Virus record (IMG/VR): IMGVR_UViG_3300027759_000073
Span: 14,559-78,558 of that record
Length of the DNA: 64,000 bases
Source of the DNA: a virus
Reading direction: 5' to 3' (one strand)
In this document: piece by piece, positions 16,070-64,000 of the stretch
How positions within the stretch are numbered: the first letter of the stretch is position 1
Layout: every line of letters starts with the position of its first letter
Position numbers and translations under genes: made by a program
The notes under the pieces: generated by a model
The model's input: the letters and a program-made list of their open reading frames with translations, nothing else
What the model was told of the DNA's origin: nothing
The model's database searches: none

Positions 16070-16131
16070 GGTATGCGGCGCGATTCAACGCTACATGATA
16101 ATAACACACCCGATTGGTTAACGAAAAACCA

Positions 16132-16599
16132 CTAAGAGATATCAGTGTATTTTATAGAGTCTTTTTTTCTTTTGCTTTTATTGTAGGCAGAAATGAACTC
16201 TGGTGTACCTATTACATTTTGTCCGCCATCAACTTCATATAGCAGATTATATGAATTTTCTAGGGCAAAAAGTATAATCCAACTTAGTGTTGAAGCATTC
16301 ATTGGTTTGCCCGACTCAAGTACCGACATATACGAAATATCATCTAATCCTGGGTATGCAATTATCACATTAGATAATTCTGGTTTTAGCCACTCTGGAA
16401 TGCGTGGGTCTATTAGCCATCCACACTTAAATGCTCTGCACATCTCTGGTCTTTCTTCATGGATGGTGCAACCGACACCCTTGTCGACATAGTGGCAAGG
16501 TCTCCCATTATAGAAAACATGACCGTTTATCTCTCCAGAAAAGTACCCTTCACAGCACCTTGTGCATGTTCCGCATGACCTATTCAACTGGCTCTCCAA
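16132..16599 (-). CDS. YkgJ-like cysteine-cluster (Zn/Fe-S) protein
   Basis: CGTCTRCC...C......CTIHEERPEMCRAFKC motif. Confidence 0.75.
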   Translation of the reverse strand: MESQLNRSCGTCTRCCEGYFSGEINGHVFYNGRPCHYVDKGVGCTIHEERPEMCRAFKCGWLIDPRIPEWLKPELSNVIIAYPGLDDISYMSVLESGKPMNASTLSWIILFALENSYNLLYEVDGGQNVIGTPEFISAYNKSKRKKDSIKYTDIS

Positions 16600-19389: not shown

Positions 19390-20827
19390 CCAATGTTTCC
19401 TTTAGTGCATTTGTTTTTAATTCTGCAAATATACGGGCTGCCTTTTCTCTTGAGCCATAGGCATTTAATTCCCTTGTTGCTATCTCCCTAGATACTAGCC
19501 CTTGTCCTTGAGCAACATGCCAAAAATGAGCACTATGAAATACTTCATAGCCGAATATTGGTGTGTCATACGACTGTGGGCAGCGCTCTTTCCATAAATC
19601 TATCAATGTGCTTAATAATTCTGGCTTTTCTGCATTTTGTTGTTCCCTCCACATTTCTGTGTCAGACCTGTCAGAAATATAGTGCATTGCGACCATCGTT
19701 ACTAGGTTCTCCATAAGCAGCGCTGTTTGCTTATTGTGCTGTTCAATAACCGCCTTTGAACCAGGGACATATGCCCCTATAACCGATACCAGCATCCTGG
19801 CCTGCTGAATAGATGTGGCAATTGAGGTTGCTTCTAATGGCTCAAGGAATGATGAGGATAGACCAACGGCAGCACAATTGTATGCCATTGCTGTCTTGTA
19901 GTATCCAGATTTAAATTTAATTATTCTTGCTGGCTGAATATCCCTGCCATGTGCGTCAGATATTTCCTTTACGGCCTGCTCGTCCGAGCAGAAATCTGAA
20001 GCAAAAACATACCCATTTCCCCTTCGCTCTTGAGTTGGTATCTCCCACATCCAGCCATTTGGCATTGCCCTTGCCCTTGTGTATGGCCTGATTTGACCAG
20101 ACTCATCAGACTCTGTCTGAAATACTGCAGCAGAATCGCATGGCAAAAATTTTCTATATGAGTAAAAGTCGGAGTCGTTGTCAACAAGTTTGCCCATTAG
20201 GGCACGGTGAAATCCAGATGAGTCAATGAAGAAATCTGCTGCTACTTCAGTTTTATTCTGCAATATGACTGACTCGATATTCCCATTCTCTGAGTTGCGA
20301 GTTATATCCTCAACTTCTCCATCTATAAATTTGATTCCTCTTGATTGTGATACATCTTTCAAGTATGTATTGAGTTTAAAAGTATCAAAGTGGAACTGAT
20401 TCACAGCATTATGTGGACTTTGCTTATTCAACGGAATTTTATTATTGTACAAATGACTTATCATTGCATTTGTTAGCAACATATTGTTTTCTATAGCAAA
20501 TGCGTAGTTCCCAGCAAAGTAGTGCGGACCTACCTCTCCACCACTAACGCTGTGGAAATAATCTGGGGTATGTGTTGTCCATCCCTCAAACCTTATGCCG
20601 TATTTATGCGTTGCTGCACAACGGTCAACCATCTCATCAACTGATATTCCGTGTTTATCTTGGAAAAAAATACGCCAGTGCTCAGTTGAGCCTTCGCCAA
20701 CTCCGATAATCCCAATTTTCTCCGAGGACACAACAGTAATTTCGTGGTATGGAAGGTGCCCTTTTAAAATTATTGCAGAGACAAGTCCAGATGTTCCTGA
20801 ACCAACAATGCAAATGTGCTTTTTCAT
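19358..20827 (-). CDS. Flavin-dependent (tryptophan-type) halogenase
   Basis: GSGTSG FAD motif, IGVGEGS, catalytic-Lys region ATHKYGI, WMWEIP (WxWxIP), FLEPLEATSI. Likely start MKKHI. Confidence 0.9.
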   Translation of the reverse strand: MKKHICIVGSGTSGLVSAIILKGHLPYHEITVVSSEKIGIIGVGEGSTEHWRIFFQDKHGISVDEMVDRCAATHKYGIRFEGWTTHTPDYFHSVSGGEVGPHYFAGNYAFAIENNMLLTNAMISHLYNNKIPLNKQSPHNAVNQFHFDTFKLNTYLKDVSQSRGIKFIDGEVEDITRNSENGNIESVILQNKTEVAADFFIDSSGFHRALMGKLVDNDSDFYSYRKFLPCDSAAVFQTESDESGQIRPYTRARAMPNGWMWEIPTQERRGNGYVFASDFCSDEQAVKEISDAHGRDIQPARIIKFKSGYYKTAMAYNCAAVGLSSSFLEPLEATSIATSIQQARMLVSVIGAYVPGSKAVIEQHNKQTALLMENLVTMVAMHYISDRSDTEMWREQQNAEKPELLSTLIDLWKERCPQSYDTPIFGYEVFHSAHFWHVAQGQGLVSREIATRELNAYGSREKAARIFAELKTNALKETLVDHASIFKKR

Positions 20828-20828
20828 T

Positions 20829-21434
20829 TCATTCAAACCATGAAACAAATGAATAACGAACCGTATCATCGCTAATACCAGTTGGATTTACATGGTGATA
20901 ATAAGGAAAATTAGATGGGAATAGGATAATGCTTCCAGCCTTTGGCTTTACTGTAACCCCAATCAATGGAAAGACAATCTCCCCACCAGTAAAATCATCA
21001 TTTAAAAATCCAATAATACTCAACACCCTTTTGTTGTCTGGATGGTGGTCAATGTGGCCTTTATACTCCGCTCCGCGACCATACTTGAGAACCCTAAATC
21101 CCTCATCTTGCTGCAAATTTAACGAATACATTGTACGATAATGCCAAATTGCCTGTTCTAGATTCTCTCGTATGTTCAACCAGGAATCAGAAAGTGGTTT
21201 CATTCTTTCGACAGTCATGAGTTCTTTGTCGAGTTGGAGCGGGCTTAATTCGCAACCCAAAGAAGAGCGATAGTCAGTTACAAACTGGTTATTATTAGAA
21301 CCAGTTCTAGTTTGATACCAATTTAAATATCCCCAATCACGCTTGCATTCTTCTTCTAGTAAGTCAATAAAATTTTCTGTTTTGAAGACTCTGTCATACT
21401 GAACAATACATGTTCCAAGTTGCTCGTGTTTCAT
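20829..21434 (-). CDS. 2OG-Fe(II) oxygenase (prolyl 4-hydroxylase-like)
   Basis: HID...LNDDFTGGE..FP...FPSNFPYYHHV...RYS. Start is 6 nt after TACTAT (leaderless). Confidence 0.9.
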   Translation of the reverse strand: MKHEQLGTCIVQYDRVFKTENFIDLLEEECKRDWGYLNWYQTRTGSNNNQFVTDYRSSLGCELSPLQLDKELMTVERMKPLSDSWLNIRENLEQAIWHYRTMYSLNLQQDEGFRVLKYGRGAEYKGHIDHHPDNKRVLSIIGFLNDDFTGGEIVFPLIGVTVKPKAGSIILFPSNFPYYHHVNPTGISDDTVRYSFVSWFE

Positions 21435-21490
21435 AAGAATATAGTATCACTAATCTCTGCAATGTCAATGATTAAATTATTAGAAATTTA

Positions 21491-22723
21491 TCATCCATCA
21501 ATGTCTTGCACGAAAGTCGTATTTCCAGTTGCAATATGCGTGCTGATATTTCTGGTTAGGACTACAAGCCCACCCTGTTTTCCAGTCGCACCAGTTCCAC
21601 CCTGCGCACCAGCGTTTCCAGAAGTTCCTGGGTTTCCAGGGTTTGCCGTTCCAGCCGCGCCTCCAGGATATGTTGGGTTGTGATATTGCGTACCAGGATG
21701 TGAATAATGGAATGAACTTCCTGGGTGTGAGTGATAATAAACTGTTGCTGGGGTGTGGTGCGCGTACGCATTAACATGGTGCCAACCAGGGTTGTGCGCG
21801 CCGTATTTACCGTTATGGCTACTGCAGCAGTGGTATGAGGCTTCTGGGTTATGAGCGGCTGCGTTGTGAGCGCCTGCATGTCCAACTGGGTTGTGCCCAA
21901 CAGCGTGACCAGTTGGGTTATGTGCAGATGTTCCAGCAACAGTGGTTCCAGCATTTCCTGCGACACCAGCATTTCCAGGATTTCCCGCACCTCCTGGATT
22001 GCCTAATGAGCCAACATTTCCTGAAGTTGGTTCGCTAACAAATGTTCCCGTTCCAGTGATGGTTTTAGCAACTACTACAACGACTCCGCCACCTTGTCCA
22101 CCAGTTCCGCCAGCACCGCCAGTTCCTGCCGCACCAAACGAGCCTCTTGTCCCAGCCGTTCCTGGGTTTCCAGCGGTTGCTCCACCGCTAGGCGAAGGTG
22201 CTGCACCTCCAGGGTTTGCTGTTCCGTCTGTTCCAGTGGAACCCAAGTTTCCAGCGGCTCCAGTTGACCCATCAGCACCAACCGCCCCAACATACCACCG
22301 TGACAAACTTGCACCAGATTGGACTACTCCATTTAACAGTGAATCGTAGTCCTTGACATTTCCTACTGGGAGAGTTCCAGATGAGTTTGCTGAATCAATT
22401 GAACTGCCAGCAGAGAATCCGCCAGTTCCATCTATTCTTGTTAGTACTGTTCCAGCCAGCACTGCCGTAGTTTGGGCTACTCCAGCAGGCATTCCGACTG
22501 TGCCGTTGTTGGTCAGTGTATTCTTTACGAATAATCTAAATCCGTTAGTAAATAAAGTTACAGATGCACTTACGGTCAAAGTATCATAATACATGTCTCG
22601 CGACAAAAAAGTATTTGTTGAAATTACAACAGTTCCATCAACGCCATTTCCGAATAACTTATCTGAGCCAGTCTTTTGAACTGGAGTTGTCCGTGTTGAT
22701 GAAAATCTGTTGATTAAAGGCAT
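21491..22723 (-). CDS. Gly-X-Y-rich virion fibre protein with His-rich insert
   Basis: GXY runs flank an ~85-aa segment with 18 His. N-terminal domain is paralogous to 22723..23457. Likely start MPLINRF overlaps the upstream stop. Confidence 0.7.
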   Translation of the reverse strand: MPLINRFSSTRTTPVQKTGSDKLFGNGVDGTVVISTNTFLSRDMYYDTLTVSASVTLFTNGFRLFVKNTLTNNGTVGMPAGVAQTTAVLAGTVLTRIDGTGGFSAGSSIDSANSSGTLPVGNVKDYDSLLNGVVQSGASLSRWYVGAVGADGSTGAAGNLGSTGTDGTANPGGAAPSPSGGATAGNPGTAGTRGSFGAAGTGGAGGTGGQGGGVVVVVAKTITGTGTFVSEPTSGNVGSLGNPGGAGNPGNAGVAGNAGTTVAGTSAHNPTGHAVGHNPVGHAGAHNAAAHNPEASYHCCSSHNGKYGAHNPGWHHVNAYAHHTPATVYYHSHPGSSFHYSHPGTQYHNPTYPGGAAGTANPGNPGTSGNAGAQGGTGATGKQGGLVVLTRNISTHIATGNTTFVQDIDG

Positions 22724-23457
22724 TACGCCACCTGCATGTAATTCACTGTTCCAGCGGAACAACCAGTGCCGCCAGTAACATCTGTTGAAACGGAACTATT
22801 TAGCACCGTTGCAGAAGATACTACCAAAATAACACCGCCACCGCCACCACCAGCACCTGCGGTTCCTGGGGCTTTGAAATATGCGGTTCCAGATGAAACG
22901 GTTATATAACGAGCAGAAATAAGTACCACTCCACCGCCTGCTCCAGATGCTCCACCAGCACCACCGCGAAGGAATGTTGGAGTTGTGCTAGATGCAGTTA
23001 CTGCCCATCCACGAATAGCCTGCAGCGGTTGCTGGTAGTACTGTGAGCCGCCAAGAGCCGCCGTTGGTGCAGTTGCAGTCTGTGTCGCGCTCGCGCCACC
23101 AAGGCTATGTGTTACAGCAACTGTTGCTGCTCCACCCTGCGCTACTGTTCCAGCAGTTGAATATCCTGTTGAGTGACCAATTACTGAGTTTGGACCAAGA
23201 GTCAGCGTATTTCTAACAAATATACGGTATCCGTTAGGAGTTAATTGAATACCATCAGCAATCGTAAGATTGTTATAGAACTTGTCCGAAGTAAGGGATG
23301 TATTCGATGAGATTGTTGCGTCTCCATCACTTCCACTGCCATACACTGGGTCTGGCAAGTTTAGGTATGTGGCAGTAGCAACAAGTGCGCTGGAAATAGA
23401 CGAAGTTGCTTCAGCCGTTGATATTCCAGTTCCGTTCACGCGAACGAACGCAGCCAT
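22723..23457 (-). CDS. Glycine-rich virion structural protein
   Basis: YGSGSDG...YNNLTI...NGYRIFV.NTL; GGGGGGVILV. Confidence 0.65.
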   Translation of the reverse strand: MAAFVRVNGTGISTAEATSSISSALVATATYLNLPDPVYGSGSDGDATISSNTSLTSDKFYNNLTIADGIQLTPNGYRIFVRNTLTLGPNSVIGHSTGYSTAGTVAQGGAATVAVTHSLGGASATQTATAPTAALGGSQYYQQPLQAIRGWAVTASSTTPTFLRGGAGGASGAGGGVVLISARYITVSSGTAYFKAPGTAGAGGGGGGVILVVSSATVLNSSVSTDVTGGTGCSAGTVNYMQVA

Positions 23458-23819
23458 TACGACTCCTCAATACCAGTAACAATAATATTTACTGCGGTGT
23501 TTGCACTTGCATAACCAATAAGTTGGTCGCTGTTTGTTGCGTTTGCAGTACTTCCGTTATTTGTAAAAACAAGGTTTGTTGAAAGTAAAACTGTTTCGTT
23601 CGCAGCAAGCGAAAGTGCATTTGTGAAGTTCTGAGTTGAAGCCTGAGCCACATTTAATGGCTTTAGAACAAGCGTTACCGTTACCGCGCTGCCAGTCGTA
23701 TTGCACAGAATAATCTGCTTTGCAATAGCCGTGGTACTAATCGGTGTGGTATAAAGAACCGTTGATGTAGTTGTCGTTAGTTGGGAAGGCCCAACAAGAC
23801 GCTTCTGTGTTAATGCCAT
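23457..23819 (-). CDS. Small beta-rich fibre-associated protein
   Basis: LYTTP...KQIILCN...SLAANET...TGIE; coupled to fibre genes. Confidence 0.6.
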   Translation of the reverse strand: MALTQKRLVGPSQLTTTTSTVLYTTPISTTAIAKQIILCNTTGSAVTVTLVLKPLNVAQASTQNFTNALSLAANETVLLSTNLVFTNNGSTANATNSDQLIGYASANTAVNIIVTGIEES

Positions 23820-24595
23820 TACATAACCTCCATATAGAATCTTATCAGACTATCTCTTACTGCTGTTGTAGTAAATGCTGTTGTAGCAATCTGGGTAGTA
23901 TTTGTTCCAGCGGATGCCGTGGCAGCCGTTGGTGCGCCAGAGAGTGCAACACTTGACTTAATTGCCGTAACTCCAGTATCAGAAACTGAAATATCTCCAG
24001 TTTCCGCCACAGCGGTTGGTACTCCAGAAGCGTTATAAACAATGATGTTTCCAGCAGTGCTTGTTGCTAACTTGCTGAGTGCAATGCCCGCTGATGCACT
24101 AATGTCTCCGTTGACGATTGTCCCGTCAGAAATCATTGCGCTAGTAACTGTTCCAGTATCGCTAGTGGTTATAACACCACTCTGATTGACCCATGCACTC
24201 CCATTCCACTTCAGGAAATCTCCAGTTGAAGGAGATGGTGCGGTAACATTGCCGATATCGTCCAGGGTATTAATTGTTGGAACTGCGGCTGCGACCCATG
24301 CGGCAGACGCCGATACATACTTCAGGAATTGCCCATCTGTCGGGCTAGGAGCGTCAACATTGCCAATGTCATCAAGGGCATTGATGGTCGGCACTGATGC
24401 TGGAACCCATACGGATGACGCTGAGAGATACTTTAGAAAGTTTCCATCAGATGGTGACGGTGCCGTGACATCGGACAGGTTATCCAAAGCAATGGCACCT
24501 AAACTTATCCATTTTTCGCCATCGTATTGCCAAGTAGAAAAACCTACGGCATAAGTTTGACCGTTTGTTGGGGAATCTGGGAAGTTAATAGCCAT
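23819..24595 (-). CDS. Tail fibre protein
   Basis: MAINFPDSPTNGQ start, three LDDxxxVxAPSPxxGxFLK repeats, PTA.TA..GTNTTQIATTAF motif. Confidence 0.75.
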   Translation of the reverse strand: MAINFPDSPTNGQTYAVGFSTWQYDGEKWISLGAIALDNLSDVTAPSPSDGNFLKYLSASSVWVPASVPTINALDDIGNVDAPSPTDGQFLKYVSASAAWVAAAVPTINTLDDIGNVTAPSPSTGDFLKWNGSAWVNQSGVITTSDTGTVTSAMISDGTIVNGDISASAGIALSKLATSTAGNIIVYNASGVPTAVAETGDISVSDTGVTAIKSSVALSGAPTAATASAGTNTTQIATTAFTTTAVRDSLIRFYMEVM

Positions 24596-24618
24596 AAGTG
24601 CTTAGTCTCCTTGTTTCT

Positions 24619-24828
24619 TCATTGCTGGTCGGCAGATAGTCCACTTGTATTTCTTCCAACAAAAGTATCACCCGCAATATTATACCGTGACGAGGCAATT
24701 TGGTTAGAGCCTGATATTGGGCGGGATTGGCTGTATATCCATTCACCGAGCGTGTCGGCTCTAGCGACGGTAGACCATAATGCCAGTAAGGCTACTGGAA
24801 CAAAAATTAACCAACGACTTTTAATCAT
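24619..24828 (-). pseudogene. Probable truncated secreted-protein remnant
   Basis: Clear signal peptide MIKSRWLIFVPVALLALWSTVARA|D, but only 69 aa in total. Confidence 0.4.
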
Positions 24829-25549
24829 ACTTTTTTGGAACCCAATATTTTTGAGAATACCCACCAATTAACTTGCTAAAAATTTTGTGCATCCTAAACA
24901 GGTTAGTTTTTTCGTTTAATTTTATTCTTTCACTTTTCCAAATTTCTCTCTTAAAAGGAATTATTTGAAGTATTGGAGTTCCTGCTGGTATTAATCCAGT
25001 AAAACCTTTTTTAATAAAGAAAGGAATACTTCCAGTTCCAGCAAACAAACCAGTATCTGTATCAATCACTCCAGCAGTAGTAACAAAAGGAGATTCAGTA
25101 TCATTCAAAGGTTGCTGAATCAAACACGAATAACCCTTTGGGGTAATTGGGGCATAATACATTTGCCAAGCAAACTCGTTTTCATGGCAACCAATTGGGG
25201 TTGGAATACTTTTTCTGGTTGCAACTATAAACGGATTAGGTTGACAGGCATACACCCATTCAATTTCATCTCCAACTTCTGTAATATAAATATCAGTCCA
25301 AGTTTTATATATGTAACCAGCCGTCATTGCATCCCTAAAAGGAACACACGCTTTAACGGTTAAATCAAGTCTGCCATTAAACATTTTTCTAGGAAGGTTT
25401 ACGGCACGCAATCTTTTGTACCAAGATGGAATAGATTTTGTTGCTGATTTTGGTACTTCTACAACATCCCAAGCATCATTGTTTGTTGATTCAAATGTAA
25501 TTAATTTTTCTTTTAGAAAGAAATCCAAGAAATAGTTGCTTCGTCCCAT
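24821..25549 (-). CDS. Conserved phage hypothetical, paralog of 18532..19389
   Basis: IPSWYK, KACVPFRDAMTAGY, TPKGYSCL, GVIDTD, GTPILQIIPFKR. Confidence 0.7.
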   Translation of the reverse strand: MGRSNYFLDFFLKEKLITFESTNNDAWDVVEVPKSATKSIPSWYKRLRAVNLPRKMFNGRLDLTVKACVPFRDAMTAGYIYKTWTDIYITEVGDEIEWVYACQPNPFIVATRKSIPTPIGCHENEFAWQMYYAPITPKGYSCLIQQPLNDTESPFVTTAGVIDTDTGLFAGTGSIPFFIKKGFTGLIPAGTPILQIIPFKREIWKSERIKLNEKTNLFRMHKIFSKLIGGYSQKYWVPKKYD

Positions 25550-25866
25550 GCGTACAGTTTTCCTTCTTCAATAGTTGGATGTGGAACTGGAGGTTGCCAA
25601 TCAAAATTTTGGTCTAACGACCATGAAGCATACGGTTTTTCAAATATAAAAACATCATTTTCTCTAAGATATTGCAGCCCCACGGAACCATACTGTTTGC
25701 GTATTTCAGGTGAAGTTTGTAGCCATTCGCCATCAAGACCTAAAGATGCAATAAATGTTTGACCTGCTTGTTCCGACTCAGGGAACACGCCTCCAGCGCA
25801 ATCACTATCATCAATAACAATCACATTCGTAACAATGTTGTTTTCAATTTTTGCAAAGTTAGCCAT
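25513..25866 (-). CDS. Fibre-associated small protein
   Basis: MANFAKIENNIVTNVIV...WLQTS...PYASW.L....W.PP...Y.WDE....W; a type commonly found after Gly-rich fibres. Confidence 0.65.
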   Translation of the reverse strand: MANFAKIENNIVTNVIVIDDSDCAGGVFPESEQAGQTFIASLGLDGEWLQTSPEIRKQYGSVGLQYLRENDVFIFEKPYASWSLDQNFDWQPPVPHPTIEEGKLYAWDEATISWISF

Positions 25867-25868
25867 AG

Positions 25869-27146
25869 TTATACCAGTGTAATTACGAAGTTAGATGAGC
25901 CAGTAAAAGTGTGAATGGTATATCCACCACTGGTAGATGTTGAACCACCAGTAACAGACATACCAGCAGCAGCAGATGTCAAGTAGGAAACATAAACCAC
26001 ACCTTGAACTCCAGCACCTCCACTGCCAGAAGCGTATGCACCGCCACCTCCACCAGCACCATATTGTGACCCATTTGCGCCGTTGCCGTTCACTGCTGCG
26101 CCACCATTACCGCCACCGCCTGAACCACCTGCACCGCCAGTTCCAGAACCACCACCACCTGCACCACCAAATACGGTTGAACCTACGCCGTTAATAGAAC
26201 AGGCAGTTCCAGCACCACCTGCTGCACCTTGTGCGCCACCGTCACCAGATTTACCGCCAGTACCACCAGTATTTGTAGTACCAGAACCGCCAGCGCCACC
26301 GTTACCGCCGACATTTCCAAATGCGTTAGCACCAGTACCGCCACCATTCCCAACAACAGTTGAACCAGTAAAGTACGAAACAGATTGACCAGAAACGCCA
26401 CCAACAGTAATCGTGTACGAACCAGCAGCCTGAGCAGCAGGTTGAACTACACCACTTCCAGCACCACCACCGCCTCCACCGCCGCCGCCTGAACCAGTAC
26501 CACTACCGCCAGAACCACCACCGCCAACAACAAGTGTTTGAACGGTAAGAGTTGAAGCAAGTGTTGTGAAAGCAACACCAGCCGATTGTGAACCAACACC
26601 ATAAGCGTTCTTAGGTCGCATATAAACTGTATATCCAGTAGATGCCGTCAAACCAGTCAAGTTCTTAGGACTTGACGAAACACCAGCATCAACCCAACTA
26701 GACAAATAATAATCGTAACCAGTTATCGCACCACCACCAGCAGTAGTTGTAAAGTTCACTGTTGCTGTAGTTCTTGAAATACTGCTTACAGAAGTAATTG
26801 TTGTTGTGCCAGTCGGGATTCCATCGGTTGTAAACGAAACACCAGTTGAAGCAGGACCAGAACCAACAGCATTAACTGCACGCAAATAAACCGTGTATGC
26901 AGTGTTCTGTGTTAAACCACTTACTGTTACTGGACTGGTTGCATCAGCAGGGGATAGTGCTGTCCATGAAGAGTTGTTGAACGAGTATTCGTAGTTCGTA
27001 ATTTCCGAACCACCGTCGTCAGATGGAACAGTAAAAGAAATAGAAACACTTGTATTGATTGGAATAGCACTTAAAGAGGTTGGGGCTGTTTTGGGTGCGG
27101 TTGCACCCTTCATACTCCCAATCATTCCCGATATTGCACCAGTCAT
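25869..27146 (-). CDS. FN3-repeat plus glycine-rich tail fibre/receptor-binding protein
   Basis: Two FN3 domains (DGGSEITNYEYS, GL...T.YTVY.R..N..G); C-terminal Gly-rich domain ending GGYTIHTFT. Confidence 0.8.
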   Translation of the reverse strand: MTGAISGMIGSMKGATAPKTAPTSLSAIPINTSVSISFTVPSDDGGSEITNYEYSFNNSSWTALSPADATSPVTVSGLTQNTAYTVYLRAVNAVGSGPASTGVSFTTDGIPTGTTTITSVSSISRTTATVNFTTTAGGGAITGYDYYLSSWVDAGVSSSPKNLTGLTASTGYTVYMRPKNAYGVGSQSAGVAFTTLASTLTVQTLVVGGGGSGGSGTGSGGGGGGGGGAGSGVVQPAAQAAGSYTITVGGVSGQSVSYFTGSTVVGNGGGTGANAFGNVGGNGGAGGSGTTNTGGTGGKSGDGGAQGAAGGAGTACSINGVGSTVFGGAGGGGSGTGGAGGSGGGGNGGAAVNGNGANGSQYGAGGGGGAYASGSGGAGVQGVVYVSYLTSAAAGMSVTGGSTSTSGGYTIHTFTGSSNFVITLV

Positions 27147-57558: not shown

Positions 57559-57578
57559 TGTGGATAACCTGTGGATAA
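57559..57578. promoter_or_regulatory. Tandem DnaA boxes
   Basis: TGTGGATAA (reverse complement TTATCCACA) at 57559 and 57570. Confidence 0.7.
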
Positions 57579-57589
57579 CAGCCCCAGAC

Positions 57590-57603
57590 CGAACACTTGT
57601 TCG
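57590..57603. promoter_or_regulatory. LexA/SOS box (Gram-positive type)
   Basis: CGAAC-ACTT-GTTCG is a perfect CGAAC-N4-GTTCG. Confidence 0.65.
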
Positions 57604-57923: not shown

Positions 57924-58664
57924 TTAGGCGAGATATCCGCCGTATGTCTCGCGATAGCGCGCGAGGTGGTTCATATCGTCATCAGAATAGCCTTCACCGT
58001 TCCAACGGGCTACGGCGTAGCGCGTAATCTCGTCACTATCCATTACTGGAATGAACGCGCGTAAGTCGGCTATTGCCTCAAAGTAGTCGGCGTGCATTGG
58101 GTCTAGCGCGATAGTGAGAAGGTTCACTAGTGAATAAGTCTCTAGCGCGTGTTCATCACCTAAGTCGCGTACTTTGCGGGCGTGTGTCTCGCGTAGCGCC
58201 GATACAAGTAGTTCGTTCGTGTTGCATATCGCTAGGTAGCCATCACGCTGTGCCGTCAATTCCGTAACTCTGTCCTGTTCCATTTTTAGCGCGTGTGCCA
58301 ATGCGGAATAGTCGGCTTGACTGTCAAGCGTGTCGGCGTGTGCCGTGTATGCGCTTGCCAATTCGGCTTGCACTTTGCCTAGTTCGTTCTTGTAGTACTT
58401 GTGCAAGTGTTTCGCCGTGTTCGCTGTGTTCTGTTCGCCTTGCTTCTCAACGAATACCCAAGCGCCCATAGCACCTAGACACACGCCGAAAAACACTAGA
58501 AAAATTACTACGCCGAACGCATTACCCGTTCCTAAATTGTAATCGTGTGCCAGTGACAAGGCGAACAAGCCACCAACGAAAACGCCAATAAGGCTAAGAA
58601 TTGTAATCATACCGCTAGTTTTTTCTAGCCAGTTGTCTAGTTTGTGTGTGAGTGTAGTTTTCAT
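57924..58664 (-). CDS. Two-TM membrane protein with coiled-coil C-terminus
   Basis: Two hydrophobic helices then a heptad-rich region; AAAGGA RBS. Confidence 0.7.
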   Translation of the reverse strand: MKTTLTHKLDNWLEKTSGMITILSLIGVFVGGLFALSLAHDYNLGTGNAFGVVIFLVFFGVCLGAMGAWVFVEKQGEQNTANTAKHLHKYYKNELGKVQAELASAYTAHADTLDSQADYSALAHALKMEQDRVTELTAQRDGYLAICNTNELLVSALRETHARKVRDLGDEHALETYSLVNLLTIALDPMHADYFEAIADLRAFIPVMDSDEITRYAVARWNGEGYSDDDMNHLARYRETYGGYLA

Positions 58665-58789
58665 TTTTTTTCCTTTTCAGTTTGGTTTGGTTTGGTTTGG
58701 TGAGTGTTGCCACTCTTACAATGCCCGCACTAGTCGGGCACTCTAAGAGTGTCACGGCGCAAGGGGTACGCCGTGACACACTCACTAGA

Positions 58790-59047
58790 TTAGTTCCAGT
58801 AGTTAGCACTCTCTAGTGAACGCTCTACTTGTGTAGCGCGTGCCTCACGGCTTGCGATAACGACACTGTCCACTGGTGCTAGGTAGTAATCACTTGGGCG
58901 TAGCGGTTGGTTGTTGTCTTGGTAAACGACACTCTCAACGCTTACGGCGTCCTCACGGATACCCCACACGCCGTGACGGTTGCGGTATGCGTAAGCGTTG
59001 CGAGGTAGCAACGCTAACTCTTTGGTACTGAATGGGCTTCTGTTCAT
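58790..59047 (-). CDS. Hypothetical early protein
   Basis: 85 aa with AAAGGA RBS and an upstream TATGAT. Confidence 0.6.
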   Translation of the reverse strand: MNRSPFSTKELALLPRNAYAYRNRHGVWGIREDAVSVESVVYQDNNQPLRPSDYYLAPVDSVVIASREARATQVERSLESANYWN

Positions 59048-59321
59048 TGGGTTTTTTCCTTTGCTATGTTCGGCGGTTTTGCCGATACCCCATCATAGGC
59101 ACAATGTTGGGGAATGTGTCAAGTCAATGCGCATATTTTCTAATTTTTTTCTATATTTTCCCGATATCCCGTCTAAGCCTTACGCCGTAAGGGTTTGCGC
59201 CATATCTGCCCTAATTGACGGCGGGCTATATATAGACACGCCAACACGGCGGGCGACACGGGCAGACACGACACGGGCACACGGCAGACACGGCAACGCC
59301 GACACGGTCACGCCGTAGCCT

Positions 59322-59349
59322 TGTGGATAACTCTAAGCCTTGTGGATAA
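59322..59349. promoter_or_regulatory. Second pair of DnaA boxes
   Basis: TGTGGATAA at 59322 and 59341, within duplicated AGCCTTGTGGATAACTC. Confidence 0.7.
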
Positions 59350-59749
59350 CTCAACCACTCTGAGTGTGATATATCAGCGGGGTAATATATCGGTGATATA
59401 TCAGCGGGGTTTGGGGGGTCGGGCGACCCGCACCCGAAGGGTGCCCCCGCCGCGAGAAAATGGTGTTCCAGACTGAATGATTTTATTTTGTTACGCTCCG
59501 TTTCCTCGGGCTGGGTCGTCCCTGCCCGCGACCCTTGAGCGTCCTCGCTCCCCTTGCGCCCTTGTCTCGACCCTCTGCGCCCTCGTCCCAACGCCAATAC
59601 CCCGCGCCGCTTTTTTAGCGGAGCCTCTGCCCGCCGCCCCTACCCTCCCCCTTCGGGAGTGTGGCTCGACCCTGGTGCCCGTGTTCGCCCTGGCGCGCGC
59701 CCTGAGCCTCTCTACGAAGCCCTAGGCGCGCCCTGGTGCGTCCTCGCGC

Positions 59750-59854
59750 CTACTTGCGCCCGCGAGCCCACAACACAAGCGCCACGATTAGGACGCTTGC
59801 TGTAGACACTGCAACGGCGGTACTTGCATTGTAGATGTCAAGTGTTACCTGCAT
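59750..59854 (-). CDS. Cassette A: 34-aa single-TM microprotein
   Basis: MQVTLDIYNASTAVAVSTASVLIVALVLWARGRK*; GAAGGGAG RBS; promoter TTGCAA-N17-TATAAT (59909..59881). Confidence 0.65.
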   Translation of the reverse strand: MQVTLDIYNASTAVAVSTASVLIVALVLWARGRK

Positions 59855-59928
59855 TGTGCTCCCTTCATTGGTATAAGTATATTATAGCACGGGTTGGCGG
59901 TAATTGCAACCACCAACCCGAACTATTT

Positions 59929-60222
59929 TCAGACGGTTACTAACTTCCGTAGTCCGACTGGGTAGCGCGCTACCGTGCCGTCTGCGTCAATGCGCCACGA
60001 GCCCGCCTTCTGGCAAGTGCTCACGCCAGTCTCGGCGTTGGTGGTTAGCAAGCGCCAGACTGAGCCCGTCATTGCGCCGTCATTGTGTTGCTTGCGCGAC
60101 AAGTCAAGCGTGTATCGGTTGCCGTCTACCTCATAGACATTGCCAATGCCCGTTGAGGCTATGCAGATATCCTTCCACGCGCTGAATATGTCGTGTGCCT
60201 CGCCTGCGTACACTTTGCCCAT
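59929..60222 (-). CDS. Cassette B: 97-aa hypothetical protein
   Basis: GAAGGGA RBS; promoter TTGTCG-N17-TATAAT (60289..60261). Confidence 0.75.
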   Translation of the reverse strand: MGKVYAGEAHDIFSAWKDICIASTGIGNVYEVDGNRYTLDLSRKQHNDGAMTGSVWRLLTTNAETGVSTCQKAGSWRIDADGTVARYPVGLRKLVTV

Positions 60223-60347
60223 TATGCGTTCCCTTCATTAGGTTGGTTGTTACTAATACTATTATATCACAATATCGCGAGCACGACAACCCCAAATAAT
60301 TATATCTTTGGGTTGCTAAGTATGCGAGAGTGTGCTATACTGTATAT

Positions 60348-60497
60348 ATGAACAACACACACAACTCACTCGCCAAGTGCGAAGGTGCGGACTGCACCAA
60401 CCTAACCGACATCGTCCTTTGCGATGACTGCACTGAGGAATACCTGTACGACTACGAACTCGCGCGGGACGACAGGGCTGAGGCGCGGTTGCGCTGA
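60348..60497 (+). CDS. Cassette C: leaderless 49-aa Cys4 microprotein
   Basis: MNNTHNSLAKCEGADCTNLTDIVLCDDCTEEYLYDYELARDDRAEARLR*; TTGCTA-N17-TATACT (60313..60341), 6 nt before ATG. Confidence 0.7.
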   Translation: MNNTHNSLAKCEGADCTNLTDIVLCDDCTEEYLYDYELARDDRAEARLR

Positions 60498-60992
60498 CGC
60501 CAACGGCGGGCGGGGCGTGAGCCTCGCCAACCCTCGCGACCCTCCTCCCGTGATATATCAACGGCATATCACCCTCGCGCCACCCTCGCGACCCTTCCCC
60601 CTCGGATAAGCCCTCAGTTAGACAATTATTTGCGCGCACAACCTGAAGCCCTGGGAGCGCCCTGGTGCCAACCCTTGGCGTGGTTCCAGTTCCCGCCGCC
60701 CGCCTCCCTCGCTCCCCTCGCGATGGCAAGCCCTGGGATAAGCCCTCAGTCTCGCAAACCCGCGCGCACGCGCCCTGGAGCCCTGGGTGAGCCCTTGCGC
60801 CAACCCTCGATATGAACGCCCGCGACCCTCTGTTTTTTTCTGAACGCCAACCCCGCGCGCCCTCCTGCGGATACGCCAACGCCACGCCCTGGCCCTCCTC
60901 TTTGCGGAGCCCTGGCGTGCCCTTGCGCCACCCTCGGGTGAGCCCTGGAGTGCGAAGCCCGCGCGCCTCTCCTCGGCTCTCTCCCTTGGTTG

Positions 60993-61052
60993 CTAGAACC
61001 TGCCTGCCCGTATTCCCGCGAGCAAGTGTGCGATGGTCATCATCAGTCTCAT
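60993..61052 (-). CDS. Cassette D: 19-aa peptide
   Basis: MRLMMTIAHLLAGIRAGRF*; GGAAGGA RBS; TTGCAT-N17-TATAAT (61110..61082). Confidence 0.5.
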   Translation of the reverse strand: MRLMMTIAHLLAGIRAGRF

Positions 61053-61134
61053 TTGGTTTCCTTCCATTAGGTTATGTATCTATTATAGCACGCCCCGCGA
61101 ACCAATGCAACCCGCGGGGCGACTATTTTCTAAA

Positions 61135-61377
61135 TTATTTTGCGAGCGACGCCCTCAACAATGCGTTGCGGAGTTTGCCCATTCCAACCTTGTCGGAGTG
61201 TGAGCCCCAACCTTCGGAGACTTGGGTCAGTTCGCCCTTGGTTAGTTCCGCCATCAAGGTGGAGTAGTGATAGATATGACGGGTGTCGCCGTCAATGTCT
61301 ACGGCTCGCCACGATGAAGCCTTGAATGAGCGCCCCGCCTTCACGGGCTTGGTTGCTAGGTCTGCTAATTTTGCCAT
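61135..61377 (-). CDS. Cassette E: 80-aa hypothetical protein
   Basis: MAKLADLATKPVKAGRSF...; GGAAGG RBS; TTGCAG-N17-TATACT (61456..61428). Confidence 0.72.
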   Translation of the reverse strand: MAKLADLATKPVKAGRSFKASSWRAVDIDGDTRHIYHYSTLMAELTKGELTQVSEGWGSHSDKVGMGKLRNALLRASLAK

Positions 61378-61729
61378 TGAGTTGCCTTCCGTTCGGGGCT
61401 TGCTGGTTGCTTGCCCTTGTATATACAAGTATAGCATTTTATAGCATACTCTGCAAGTCAAACGGGCAGATTTTTCTAAATTGTTTTGCCCTCAACGAGA
61501 CGCGCCCTGGCGCCCCTCCTGCGGCGCAAGCCCTCGAACAAGCCCTCAGTTGGACAATCCCTCGCGCTCACGCCCTGGAGCCCGTGGTGAGCCCTGGGTA
61601 TCCCGCGGGGGTTGGTCGCAAAACTGCAGGGCAAGCCCTCCCCCTATATTGTCCCCTGTGCGACCCTCCTGTGGGTATGCAGAAGCCCGCCCCGCGGGGG
61701 GTGCGGGTCGGGCTCTGCCTGTGGTCTTG

Positions 61730-61948
61730 CTACGCTTCCAGCGAGCGTGCAACCGTTCCTGTGAAGGTTGGGCTAACCCAGCGCAACACAATCGCCATTT
61801 CGGCACTGCGGTCACGAACAACCGCAACCTTTGCGCACTTCTCTACCCAAGCAACCGCTTCGGTGAGTGTGTCGCACGACATTACTTTGACGAGACCGCC
61901 ATCGCCCTCGTTGTCGTACTGCCAGTGAACTAGATACTGATTTTCCAT
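61730..61948 (-). CDS. Cassette F: 72-aa hypothetical protein
   Basis: AAGGGAG RBS; TTGCAT-N17-TATACT (62007..61979); GC hairpin downstream at about 61679-61718. Confidence 0.72.
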   Translation of the reverse strand: MENQYLVHWQYDNEGDGGLVKVMSCDTLTEAVAWVEKCAKVAVVRDRSAEMAIVLRWVSPTFTGTVARSLEA

Positions 61949-62036
61949 TTTGTTCTCCCTTGTTTCGTTGGTAATACAAGTATACCAATTCGTGCGACAA
62001 TATGCAAGTCAAACGGGTATATTTTCTAAATTATTT

Positions 62037-62240
62037 TTAGGACATAAAGTCCAGCGCCCTCTGCGCCCTCTGCTTCGCCCAAACCGTGCTGGCTTCCAGC
62101 GAGCCCGCGGCGTATGCGTGCCCGTAGTCCGCCACAAGTCCCTCGGGGTTCAGCCCGTCTAGGTACTCCACGATTTCCGTGAGTGCGTGTTCTAGGTCGG
62201 TGACCCTCGCCCTCAGTTGGTGTTCGGTGTATGTCTGCAT
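62037..62240 (-). CDS. Cassette G: 67-aa hypothetical protein
   Basis: GGAGGG RBS; TATAAT at 62275..62270 with no clear -35. Confidence 0.68.
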   Translation of the reverse strand: MQTYTEHQLRARVTDLEHALTEIVEYLDGLNPEGLVADYGHAYAAGSLEASTVWAKQRAQRALDFMS

Positions 62241-62320
62241 TTTATTTCCCTCCGTTGTGTTGTGAATAAATTATACCCAATGGGTGTCACACGGTTTCCC
62301 GCGCGCCCTCCCCCTTCGGG

Positions 62321-62452
62321 CTAGTAAAGTCCTCGGGCGATTTCTCGCTGTTGGTCTGCGATTTCGTCACAGAAACAATCGCAAGACCAAACCCCGCAGT
62401 CCTCGCAGGTTTGGATATCGTCCTCGGTGGTTGTGTTCGTTGTGTTTGTCAT
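62321..62452 (-). CDS. Cassette H: leaderless 43-aa Cys-rich microprotein
   Basis: MTNTTNTTTEDDIQTCEDCGVWSCDCFCDEIADQQREIARGLY*; TTGCAT-N17-TATACT (62487..62459), 6 nt before ATG. Confidence 0.7.
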   Translation of the reverse strand: MTNTTNTTTEDDIQTCEDCGVWSCDCFCDEIADQQREIARGLY

Positions 62453-62552
62453 AATAATAGTATAGCACACTATGCTACACAATGCAACCCCATTTCCAAA
62501 ATAAATAAAACTTTTTCCGACCCGTCGCCCTTGCGCCCTCACGCCCGCGGGG

Positions 62553-62711
62553 CTAGTTCAGCCACTCTCCGCAGTGTGCGCAGATTTTCACGCTACCGCC
62601 GAAGGGCAGTTTTTCGTAGTCGGTGGTTGAGCCACAAACAACGAGTGCGCCCTCGTCACTCACACAATAGGCTGGCAGGTGGATTTCGTGGTTGTTCAGT
62701 GTAATCGTCAT
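62553..62711 (-). CDS. Cassette I: leaderless 52-aa Cys4 microprotein
   Basis: MTITLNNHEIHLPAYCVSDEGALVVCGSTTDYEKLPFGGSVKICAHCGEWLN*; TTGTCA-N17-TATACT (62746..62718), 6 nt before ATG. Confidence 0.7.
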   Translation of the reverse strand: MTITLNNHEIHLPAYCVSDEGALVVCGSTTDYEKLPFGGSVKICAHCGEWLN

Positions 62712-62925
62712 ATATACAGTATAGCACACTCTGCCACGCTTGACAACTTATTTCCAAATATTTTTGCTGTCTGCCAGTCGCGCCCTCAGCGTCCCGCGTG
62801 CCCTCGCACCCTCGGATAAACCCTCAGTCTCGCTTTTTTTCCCACTCACGCCCTGGAGCCTTGGGGCACGGCTAATAGCCCGCGGGGTCGCCACTCCCGC
62901 GGGCTTGCGCCTTGCTTACTACCAC

Positions 62926-63057
62926 TTAGTGAGGCACGCCGTTCCAGTATGGGCGTGGCTCTGAAGGCTCGTCATACTCGTCATAACCCTCTGCTTCCAA
63001 CAATTCGTCTTCCCACCCTGGCTTCCACCCGTGGTCCAAGTCACCGTAGTTTGACAT
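62926..63057 (-). CDS. Cassette J: 43-aa acidic/aromatic microprotein
   Basis: MSNYGDLDHGWKPGWEDELLEAEGYDEYDEPSEPRPYWNGVPH*; GAAAGGA RBS; TTGCAT-N17-TATACT (63116..63088); hairpin at 62877-62905. Confidence 0.7.
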   Translation of the reverse strand: MSNYGDLDHGWKPGWEDELLEAEGYDEYDEPSEPRPYWNGVPH

Positions 63058-63345
63058 TTTGTTTCCTTTCGTTTGGCTGATATATACAGTATAGCACAAT
63101 ATCGCACGATATGCAAATTATTTCCAGATATTTTTCTAAGCGCCCTGGGCGTAGCCCAAGCCCTCGGACAAGCCCTCAGTCTCGCAAACTTTCCCTCGTT
63201 CACCCTGGAGCCCTGGAGCGTGCCCTGGGGCAATTCTTGGCTTGGTCGCCCGCGTGCCCAAACCCACCAGCCTCCGCCCGTGGGCAGATACGCCAATGCC
63301 CGCCCAGCGGGGGGGCTGGGCGGGCTGGCTCTGACTGACTGCCGT

Positions 63346-63603
63346 CTAGCGGTAGTACAGCCAGTTCTTGCGGAACGAGACTGCCGTTCCTTCGTAGTCG
63401 GCGTTAGCGTCACGGCTAATGGCATCAACCATTACTGGGGCGATAACAAGCGTGTCGGGCGTTGCCTTCGCCGTGCGTAGCGCACGGTTGCTGGCGAGGG
63501 CATAGGTCAAGCCGTTGTCTTGGCTGACCGCCATCGTGGTTTTGGCTTGGCTTGAGTTTGTCAAGCCTGACCACTGAATATTGCTATTGCGTGCTGGTCG
63601 CAT
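63346..63603 (-). CDS. Cassette K: 85-aa hypothetical protein
   Basis: GAAAGGGA RBS; TTGCGA-N17-TATAGT (63673..63645); hairpin GCCCGCCCAGC...GCTGGGCGGGC from 63298. Confidence 0.7.
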   Translation of the reverse strand: MRPARNSNIQWSGLTNSSQAKTTMAVSQDNGLTYALASNRALRTAKATPDTLVIAPVMVDAISRDANADYEGTAVSFRKNWLYYR

Positions 63604-64000
63604 ATTTCCCTTTCGCATAGGTACTTCGTTTTCCCTATGAATATACTATAGCACACTCTGTCACGGTTCGCAACCTAAAATAGAATTATTTTGGATATTC
63701 TTTTGATATATCACCGCCCGCACCCTCCTCCCTCCCTCGGCAGACCCACTAGCCTCCGCCCTGGCGCGCCTCTTGTAATGCGTCCTGGGGCGAGTTACGG
63801 GCTTGGGTGGGTGCTTGCCCCATATCGCCCTCGCGGAGCCCTGGGAGCCCTTGGGTGCGTCTGACGGGGCGAACAAGTGTTTGGGGGTCGTTTGCCACGA
63901 TATGCGCCCTCGTGCGATATTGTGCGAGTAAAAGTAAAATAAGCCCTCAGTCACGCAAAGTCCCGCGCGCCTCCCTCGGCACGCCCTGGAGCGTCTAGTG

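Follow-up and report, generated by a model that had tools for sequence, protein, structure and literature searches.

The 64,000-nt stretch of viral DNA analyzed here, referred to as the window, comprises bases 14559-78558 of the 78.5-kb linear IMG/VR record IMGVR_UViG_3300027759_000073 (contig G000), which is estimated to be 59% complete. Nearly all of its genes lie on the minus strand, and its guanine-plus-cytosine (GC) content of ~44% gives way to 53-57% in the final 6 kb. There, an array of very small open reading frames (ORFs), numbered c1 to c11 from the contig end inwards and almost all led by a promoter of their own, runs up to the right end of the contig, and the window stops inside it. 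Protein-anchored searches recovered four related IMG/VR contigs, G001 (36 kb), G002 (66 kb), G003 (68 kb) and G004 (16 kb). All of these genomes are incomplete metagenome contigs (31-59% by CheckV) with no end repeats on record, and the far end of G000 does not overlap the upstream end of G002, hence no genome could be closed. Terminase is 98-99% identical among G000, G002, G003 and G004; G001 is a more distant relative, with ~70-72% DNA identity in structural and core genes. DNA of the array is present in lake-water metagenomes from many studies, and a nucleotide search of the 4.5-kb array against 50,697 phage records returned zero matches.

Promoter-led microgenes at the contig end

The strict promoter pattern TTGY-N16-TGN-TATAVT, which combines a 17-nt spacer with a TG extension, has ten matches in the window, all of them within 3.8 kb (59881-63673; nine on the minus strand, one on the plus strand) and none in the other 59 kb. 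Across 100 dinucleotide-preserving shuffles the expectation is 0.05, with a maximum of one match in any shuffle. A scan with a generic consensus found 13 promoter-like sites in 8 kb against 5.1 +/- 2.8. The ORFs behind the ten promoters encode 19, 34, 43, 43, 49, 52, 72, 80, 85 and 97 aa, and a Shine-Dalgarno sequence of the AAGGGA or GGAGG type stands before seven of them. In c3, c4 and c9 the ATG sits 6 nt past the -10 box, so that their mRNAs would be leaderless; all three products are Cys-rich. An A-rich tract lies upstream of the -35 boxes, and a GC hairpin of -18.6 to -31 kcal/mol follows within 16 nt of the stop codon in eight of the ten minus-strand ORFs, none of these hairpins being followed by a U-tract. 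The sequence-only reading of this DNA had described ten near-consensus promoters with a 17-nt spacer serving ten of eleven genes, AT-rich upstream tracts, GC hairpins behind several genes, GC-rich non-coding spacers, and five genes absent from the ORF track. That description holds throughout: c5 alone has a -10 box without a -35 box, the spacers have 56-68% GC, and a 60-aa threshold would miss exactly c2, c3, c8, c9 and c11.

Followed from the contig end, and on the minus strand unless stated otherwise, the array starts with c1, whose promoter (63645..63673; TTGCGA-17-TATAGT with TG extension and an A/T-rich upstream tract) leads an ORF of 85 aa (63346..63603; 90 aa from an upstream ATG at 63618) with the Shine-Dalgarno sequence AAGGGA and a GC hairpin downstream (63292-63329). 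Orthologues of c1 at 86-89% identity occur in G001, G002 and G003. The acidic 43-aa product of c2 (62926..63057) lies behind a TTGCAT-17-TATACT promoter (63088..63116). It is followed by two leaderless genes: c3 (52 aa, Cys-rich, 62553..62711; promoter TTGTCA-17-TATACT, 62718..62746), which is inverted in G001, and c4 (43 aa with six Cys, 62321..62452; promoter TTGCAT-17-TATACT, 62459..62487). At c5 (67 aa, 62037..62240) only a TATAAT at ~62270-62275 was found; c5 is probably co-transcribed with c4, because the gap between the two is only ~20 nt in G002, the closest relative. The c6 promoter (61979..62007, TTGCAT-17-TATACT) leads a 72-aa ORF (61730..61948) and then a GC hairpin of -28 kcal/mol, and the c7 promoter (61428..61456, TTGCAG-17-TATACT) an 80-aa ORF (61135..61377).

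At c8, a 19-aa ORF (MRLMMTIAHLLAGIRAGRF; 60993..61052) kept in G001, G002, G003 and G004 with synonymous changes, a GC stem of 9 bp holds the -35 box of the promoter (61082..61110, TTGCAT-17-TATAAT) in its loop. The only plus-strand unit is c9 (49 aa, leaderless, Cys-rich, 60348..60497), whose promoter (60313..60341, TTGCTA-17-TATACT) stands back to back with that of c10 (60261..60289, TTGTCG-17-TATAAT); c10 itself encodes 97 aa (59929..60222). The last unit, c11, encodes 34 aa with a hydrophobic C-terminal half (59750..59854), and its promoter (59881..59909, TTGCAA-17-TATAAT) again has the -35 box in a loop, here that of a 12-bp stem.

The relatives show that the window contains only the last, promoter-distal 4.5 kb of an array type that spans ~24 kb. 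In G002 the array extends over ~24 kb with ~45 promoters and then ends; upstream of it lie larger genes, a subtilase among them, that lack such promoters. It is internal to the contig, with ~6 kb of other genes upstream, and its ~45 promoters are co-oriented with the rest of the genome. When 139 promoters were pooled from four genomes they yielded a single consensus, an A-rich tract followed by gG-TTGCaA-N14-TGc-TATAaT, the tract occupying positions -19 to -15 relative to the -35 box. The TG extension is present in about 80% of them (T at -15 in 116, G at -14 in 110), 25 of the 139 (~18% of cassettes) are leaderless, and 28, about a fifth, have a stem of at least 7 bp enclosing the -35 box.

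In roughly one fifth of promoters the -35 hexamer lies inside a 9-12 bp GC stem that an A-run precedes (for instance G001 sense 15100-16150 and 23590, L123 1683-3250, and window 59881-59935 and 61082-61130). Read on the opposite strand, the same stem has the form of a canonical intrinsic terminator, a stem and then T6. Such junctions would thus be predicted to halt antisense transcription while starting sense transcription. In the upstream part of the relatives' arrays we also observed genes for proteins of the DUF932 (346 aa) and DUF1281_C/Api92-like (207 aa) types, at L174:4067-5107 and 2620-3243; both types are present in the G002 array, and the subtilase S8 gene marks the array boundary.

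Coding evidence

Comparison of the ORFs with their orthologues showed differences concentrated at third codon positions. Counts at positions 1/2/3 were 19/24/64 for c1, 30/18/62 for c3, 10/12/47 for c6, 4/4/18 for c9, 84/62/153 for c10 and 1/0/7 for c11, where 7 of 8 changes against G002 are at third positions. Even the 19-aa c8 gave 12/2/16, with seven synonymous codons against one relative. This third-position excess supports a coding role for c1, c3, c6, c7, c8, c9, c10 and c11; c2 has too few changes for the test, and c4 and c5 are mixed. The largest microprotein, c10, has nine database homologues (58-99% identity, 36 invariant columns) from ENA, JGI, NCBI and Logan, two of which, P0005 and P0004, are encoded on contigs of 104.7 kb and 31 kb, and its AlphaFold model (pLDDT 90) is a confident alpha+beta domain. 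The units are real, and most of their ORFs evolve as coding sequence.

What these proteins do is less apparent from searches. No significant match to Pfam or PHROGs was found for the ten microproteins scanned (all but c8), nor did these scans show any likeness to SPO1 gp37-60, and the c10 model had no match at E <= 0.001 in Foldseek searches of PDB and BFVD. Language-model look-alikes of c7 include the small phage families DUF8033 and Kyano_Gp96, which we offer as a lead only. More distant members of the c10 family (29-50% identity) were also seen on metagenome contigs of high GC content (L133, L136 and L139, 62-76% GC), with large phage-like contigs of 131 and 139 kb among them, and on marine TARA contigs. 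This small gene thus travels far beyond the present phage clade.

Exchange of cassettes among relatives and lake populations

A map of promoter-associated families shows how the units differ between genomes. G002 has the order of the window, c1 to c11. G003 is without c2 and c6, has an unrelated 45-aa CxxC gene there, and retains a c5 that is only 52% identical; at the position of c9, G003 and G001 have a different, 37-aa Cys-rich gene. In G001, c10 lies ~6 kb further upstream among other cassettes, c6 stands ahead of c4, and c3 is on the opposite strand. The borders of these changes fall at the junctions between units. Where c2 is missing in its entirety from G003, the junction is a clean chimera that follows the window's pre-c2 spacer nearly base for base to the end of a repeated bipartite element (described below) and continues, beyond that element, with the window's pre-c3 UP tract and promoter. 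The c10 segment that the window and G001 have in common likewise extends from its own promoter to the next one.

Sequence identities do not follow the relationships of the genomes. Whereas the c10 protein is 89% identical in the distant G001 and 68% in the close G002, and c3 shows the same pattern (81% vs 64%), c4 (58% vs 98%) and c7 (78% vs 94%) show the reverse. At the DNA level c1, c6 and c10 of G001 are 82-83% identical to the window, against ~70-72% for core genes. Array proteins of the relatives range overall from 51 to 100% identity with variable presence, against 98-99% for terminase. These discordant identities require exchange of single cassettes between lineages.

Contigs from four public runs, aligned to the window, extend this variation to lake populations. 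In one, c10 is missing through a deletion that spans everything between its -35 box and its stop codon (59928>60281); in another, a different sequence of 598 letters takes the place of c2 between two bipartite elements (62838>63160); in a third type, two tandem bipartite elements have collapsed (60624>60778). Further joints link distant element copies (62838>60772, 61659>63285) or opposite strands at promoters (61433/63108, 61972/62551). Two that go back along the sequence, 61456>60307 and 62838>60772, are compatible with circles, tandem duplications or a different order in a relative. Each lake joint is weak alone, but taken jointly and alongside the independent IMG/VR contigs they form a consistent picture. 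Across relatives and lake populations, then, units have disappeared, been replaced, changed place or been inverted, and the crossovers fall at the promoter with its UP tract and at the bipartite spacer element. The modular, shuffleable character that the sequence-only reading had proposed was to be checked in just this way, and the relatives do keep promoters and spacers while differing in the content and order of ORFs.

No tyrosine or serine recombinase was found in the four contigs G000-G003, where PF00589 had no match and controls were positive. The crossover position also varies by case, falling at the element edge, in the linker, at the promoter -35 box or in the UP tract. Because of both observations, general or short-homology recombination appears the likelier shuffling mechanism.

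GC-rich spacers and the bipartite element

Six gaps of 100-500 nt between a hairpin and the next promoter have 56-68% GC, compared with ~44% for the window. All are oriented with the minus-strand genes. The one upstream of c1 (63701..64000) is cut by the contig end and holds a partial bipartite element (63939-63968). That between c1 and c2 (63141..63345) contains a complete element (63161-63219), the partner in the c2 deletion of the copy at 62809-62867 in the c2-c3 spacer (62761..62925), where lake-contig joints also fall. The c6-c7 spacer (61481..61729) consists of a hairpin, an array of short words and one element (61531-61589). The largest, 495 nt with 68% GC (60498..60992), has 209 G and 126 C on the sense strand, 14 copies of AGGGC and two tandem elements, and the last word-bearing spacer (59441..59749) follows c11 and passes into a non-coding zone with DnaA boxes.

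The words themselves are strongly biased to one strand. Sense-strand and opposite-strand counts over 1790 nt of spacer are 45 and 1 for AGGGC, 20 and 0 for CCAGGGC, and 40 and 0 for GAGGG. The last 5 kb of the window hold 46 of its 58 sense-strand copies of SSAGGGY, while the 20 antisense copies are evenly spread. The preferred spacing between words is 12 nt start to start (AGGGY-N7-AGGGY, 10 vs 0). The bipartite element has fixed geometry in all six copies, CTCCAGGGY, 25 nt and AGGGCTT, with the conserved right half TTGYSWRACTGAGGGCTTRTYCGAGGGCTTG. With a stricter DNA pattern this right half was found in IMG/VR only in G002, G003 and G004 besides the window contig. An earlier, loose pattern had given mostly chance single matches in IMG/VR and was uninformative. 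Prokaryote genomes gave 68 single matches to the stricter pattern and no family, and one match on an Actinomycetota metagenome-assembled genome contig (L236) proved unrelated by BLAST.

Spacer identity to the window is 84-87% in G002 (ORFs 89%), 85-88% in G003 (ORFs 76.5%) and 92-99% in G004 (ORFs 84%); the spacers have not diverged faster than the ORFs and are part of the conserved backbone. Within them, word positions are conserved at 0.866 vs 0.844, 0.881 vs 0.846 and 0.994 vs 0.919 for the rest of the spacer. The distant G001 has shorter GC islands at the same place, from hairpin to UP tract, with a different sense-biased word, GGCGCGGCGG(T)TGCTGG; over G001 sense 20540-25920 there is no AGGGC bias (25 vs 32), and GCGGCGG occurs 12 times vs 1. 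A search of 58000-64000 against Rfam gave nothing near threshold, so the spacers are not a known RNA. All 16 sense-strand G-quadruplex (G4)-type motifs with long loops (up to 12 nt) of the 78.5-kb contig are inside the array; canonical motifs with loops of at most 7 nt number only 5 vs 2.

Several functions for the spacers were considered and set aside. An 'SPQSRK..RPGALGEP' peptide recurs three times in antisense ORFs across them, but indels put a further copy out of frame, and the spacers were treated as non-coding. A role as anti-Shine-Dalgarno sponge was dropped, as pairing of AGGGC with the CCUCC core does not extend past GAGG, and so was a classical activator site, the distance from element to -35 box being 55, 73 or 85 nt. 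Among gene families limited to the word-bearing lineages, no candidate DNA-binding gene to read the words was apparent by eye.

Regulatory-looking sites beside the array

Just downstream of the array, a non-coding zone of ~900 nt contains two tandem pairs of perfect DnaA boxes (TTATCCACA, minus strand; four boxes against 0.42 expected) at window 59322-59349 and 57559-57578, and both pairs are kept in G002, G003 and G004. This zone is a possible replication origin or host-factor recruiting site. About seven short repeats of the GACACGG/GTGTC type adjoin the boxes at window 59226-59300, and at lower coordinates than these lies an 85-aa gene (58790-59047, minus strand) with a TTGACA-17-TATGAT promoter and AT-rich tract.

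Two classes of palindrome were also observed. The palindrome GTGATATATCAC occurs at window 59366-59383, 59393-59410 and 60550-60567 and also near 63705 and 8304, with 8-12 copies per genome in G001-G003. In each genome, about five promoters with a weaker -35 box have a copy that begins 28-31 nt ahead of that box, in many cases with a half-site after it, and other copies flank the DnaA boxes; the palindrome looks like an operator or activator site of a separate regulator for a subset of cassettes. SOS-box-like palindromes CGAACAAGTGTTCG (CGAAC-N4-GTTCG form) are found in the window at 57590-57603 (perfect) and 63870-63883 (one mismatch), and number 5, 3 and 5 in G001, G002 and G003 against ~0.4-0.5 expected. 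Most lie in the GC-rich intergenic DNA of the array or in the DnaA-box zone, and they may be LexA sites or simply hairpins.

Host and transcription

A WhiB gene (PF02467, 73.6-78.9 bits) lies inside the arrays of G001, G002 and G003 (G001:C1:29833-30024, G002:C1:53698-53889, G003:C1:6022-6213), and the window's contig ends before that part; of 14 control genomes only Corynebacterium was positive. WhiB proteins are confined to Actinobacteria and the phages that infect them. Alignments covering 75-78% of the major capsid protein show 49-51% identity to its counterparts in Brevibacterium phage Cantare and Gordonia phages. Together with the ~18% of leaderless starts, these features support an actinobacterial host, as the sequence-only reading had suggested.

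One metatranscriptome library (X19, labelled marine) yielded ~1-kb contigs at 85-95% identity and depth 34-84 over most of 58855-63998, spacers included, whereas lake DNA runs cover the array at depth 13-15. The X19 coverage may represent read-through transcription or DNA carry-over; it was given no weight as a sign of transcription, nor were stretches left uncovered by every run taken as absent.

Interpretation of the array

We consider it likely that the array consists of shuffled, self-sufficient promoter-microgene cassettes of an uncultured freshwater actinophage. The region would be a hyperplastic accessory region of ~24 kb and ~45 promoters, in which each unit comprises an A-rich UP-like tract, an extended -10 promoter, a Shine-Dalgarno leader or leaderless ATG, a microprotein ORF and a GC hairpin. 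Such promoters could be read by the RNA polymerase holoenzyme of the host without phage factors, which would give early and independent expression, and with independent expression a cassette would function at any site to which recombination brings it. The units would then be shuffled by homologous or short-homology recombination among scattered junction modules, in the way proposed for the PeSL elements of T4-type phages, and the microproteins would presumably act on the host. Of the roles that the sequence-only reading had proposed, immediate-early expression is plausible, and anti-defence or host takeover would be candidate functions of the products. The GC-rich asymmetric spacers certainly provide homology for cassette exchange; beyond this, insulation or a polar protein-binding array is conceivable.

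Several points weigh against this interpretation. The hairpins are without U-tracts, hence their terminator activity is assumed, and early timing and independent expression are read off from the sigma-70/sigmaA-type consensus. The sole RNA library with the array, X19, covers spacers too and may contain DNA. No function was recognizable for the microproteins in Pfam or PHROGs (ten proteins) or in Foldseek (c10). The joints in short-read data may be assembly chimeras at repeats, several having short sides of 20-41 nt. The array is mostly collinear among relatives, which differ mainly by gain, loss and replacement with few true reorderings, and the absence of a recombinase from fragmentary genomes is weak evidence.

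Other explanations were also weighed. Very short ORFs on short-read assemblies of repeat-rich DNA, in a window that stops within the array, could be no genes at all, and the differences between relatives could be metagenome assembly errors; yet eight ORFs show a third-position excess, c10 has homologues from four separate sources and a confidently modelled fold, independent IMG/VR assemblies agree in pairs where they overlap (G000-G002 and G003-G004), and the clean G003 junction is mirrored in contigs from other studies, all of which leaves artefact barely credible. An integron-like, site-specific exchange, with the bipartite element as the site of a dedicated recombinase, would account for the two element copies that bracket the c2 unit, for the G003 junction at the 3' edge of the element, for the several lake joints inside element copies and for the restriction of the element to the present phage clade in IMG/VR. 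We regard it as very improbable given that tyrosine and serine recombinases were not found in the four contigs, that crossovers also fall in the linker, at the -35 box and in the UP tract, that the element, a bipartite direct repeat, lacks the inverted repeats of an attC site, and that G001 is rearranged although it lacks the element. The units could, alternatively, be accessory genes of the moron type that are constitutive or at least not immediate-early, some cassettes being delayed or regulated; the consensus promoters would then carry no information on an immediate-early arsenal. The promoter-gene-hairpin anatomy of each unit fits this, as do the promoters of the relatives in which a weaker -35 box stands with a GTGATATATCAC palindrome, suggesting a separate regulator, and the enrichment of SOS-box-like palindromes in the arrays. 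However, neither an integrase nor another sign of lysogeny was found in the four contigs, the ~45 promoters are co-oriented with the genome, and the strict motif is confined to the array, as expected for one temporal class read by unmodified host polymerase; we therefore think this explanation unlikely.

A further possibility concerns the spacers and is compatible with the cassette model. They may be the functional core of the array, offering head-to-tail SSAGGGY sites to a directionally acting protein of the host or the phage, be it as a roadblock or insulator of the stoperator type, as a polar loading track resembling KOPS, Chi or clt, or as G-quadruplex or R-loop DNA. Such an array would gate read-through, genome entry or an early-to-late switch. 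The strand bias of AGGGC, CCAGGGC and GAGGG, the concentration of sense SSAGGGY in the last 5 kb with its regular spacing, and the fixed geometry of the bipartite element all speak for it, as do a GC content of 60-68% in a 44% GC genome, divergence no faster than that of the ORFs with word positions kept slightly better, the confinement of the long-loop G4-type motifs to the array and the sense-biased word GGCGCGGCGG that distant G001 has at the same place. Yet the excess of word conservation is small, the G4 motifs require loops up to 12 nt, the element-to-promoter distance varies, G001 does without these particular words, nothing DNA-binding was seen by eye among the families exclusive to word-bearing lineages, and concerted evolution through the observed recombination could keep the repeats alike with no further function. 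We hold this role for the spacers to be possible, though rather unlikely. It is more doubtful still that the one-strand word arrays and the bipartite element together form a dedicated cis-acting polar protein platform that insulates early units and marks exchange points. If true, such a platform would be something like an integrase-free counterpart of the integron in lytic actinophages.

Under the cassette interpretation, the array gathers ~45 microproteins per genome in a compact catalogue, many of them below 60 aa and thus invisible to standard gene calling. The portable strong promoter of each unit would make cloning and screening for toxicity, host takeover or anti-defence easy, and the promoters, the leaderless ones included, could serve as expression parts for low-GC Actinobacteria. 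The spacers present a clear anomaly: in these GC islands a single pentamer favours one strand 45:1, and their divergence does not outpace that of the neighbouring genes.

Comparison with known systems

Repeated intergenic sequence classes that contain promoters are also described for halovirus HF2 (PMC8707807), an archaeal virus with archaeal promoters for which cassette shuffling is not known to have been claimed. Stoperators of Cluster A mycobacteriophages are sites of 13-14 bp, one per intergenic gap across the genome, bound by the immunity repressor (PMC9283540). They resemble the array words as many copies of a short, asymmetric intergenic site oriented with transcription (45:1 in the array), whereas the array words are of 5-7 nt, with ~65 copies in 1.8 kb and confinement to ~5 kb. 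Integron arrays, too, consist of co-oriented small ORFan cassettes with repeated junction elements. Integron cassettes are promoterless, carry attC inverted-repeat sites and depend on an integrase. Here 10 of 11 cassettes have their own promoter, the repeat is direct and bipartite, and PF00589 was not found in G000-G003, such that all three of these features differ.

Autonomous promoter-gene-terminator units inserted between phage genes are known as morons from lambdoid and other temperate phages, through the work of Hendrix and colleagues. Morons are scattered single units expressed from prophages, whereas the array is one co-oriented run of ~45 units, and no integrase was found in its four contigs. 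The SPO1 host-takeover module, with 26 small early genes (Stewart et al. 1998 as cited in PMC6873191), resembles the array in grouping mostly small genes whose promoters and ribosome-binding sites are of the kind found at strongly expressed genes. In the same account the module is read early by host sigmaA polymerase, a reading that the sigmaA-type promoters would suggest for the array, and is a 12.4-kb terminal region partly organized in operons, in contrast to an array where nearly every gene has its own promoter. The array is also about twice as long and, in the contigs of the relatives (all fragments), internal; an analogy of position with SPO1 and T5, two of the systems that the sequence-only reading had named, does not hold for an array that is not terminal in those contigs. 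Products of the SPO1 module shut off host macromolecular synthesis or cell division, and the array is likened to it by gene size and promoters only.

The closest counterpart in both anatomy and evolutionary behavior appears to be the PeSL 'mobile regulatory cassettes' of T4-type phages (Arbiol et al. 2010, PMC2839356; Comeau et al. 2014, PMC4122927). In both systems the junction is composite: a promoter of the sigma-70 consensus has AT-rich DNA upstream of it and a Shine-Dalgarno sequence, and GC stem-loops, in the array often far from the promoter and only putative terminators, accompany it. The neighbours of these junctions are small ORFans of a hyperplastic region set between conserved core genes, and in both systems crossovers of the indel or replacement kind between close relatives fall within the motifs. 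Shuffling by recombination between dispersed motifs has been proposed for PeSLs (PMC2839356, PMC4122927). The two differ in that the stem precedes the AT tract in PeSLs and encloses the -35 box in one fifth of the array units, that ~18% of array units are leaderless, and that hairpin and promoter of the array are 100-500 nt apart, separated by a conserved GC-rich asymmetric spacer with the bipartite element as crossover site. In the array, moreover, promoter and terminator activity are predicted from sequence, and mini-circles would be one reading of the joints that go back. It occurs in an unrelated lineage and host, an actinophage-like virus with a siphovirus-type capsid and with WhiB in its relatives, and not in a T4-like myovirus. 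Because the phage lineage is different, the array is an analogue of the PeSL system and not a relative. Shuffling by junction recombination has been worked out in T4-type coliphages, and its recurrence in abundant lake actinophages suggests a general, independently reached way of sampling small host-directed genes.

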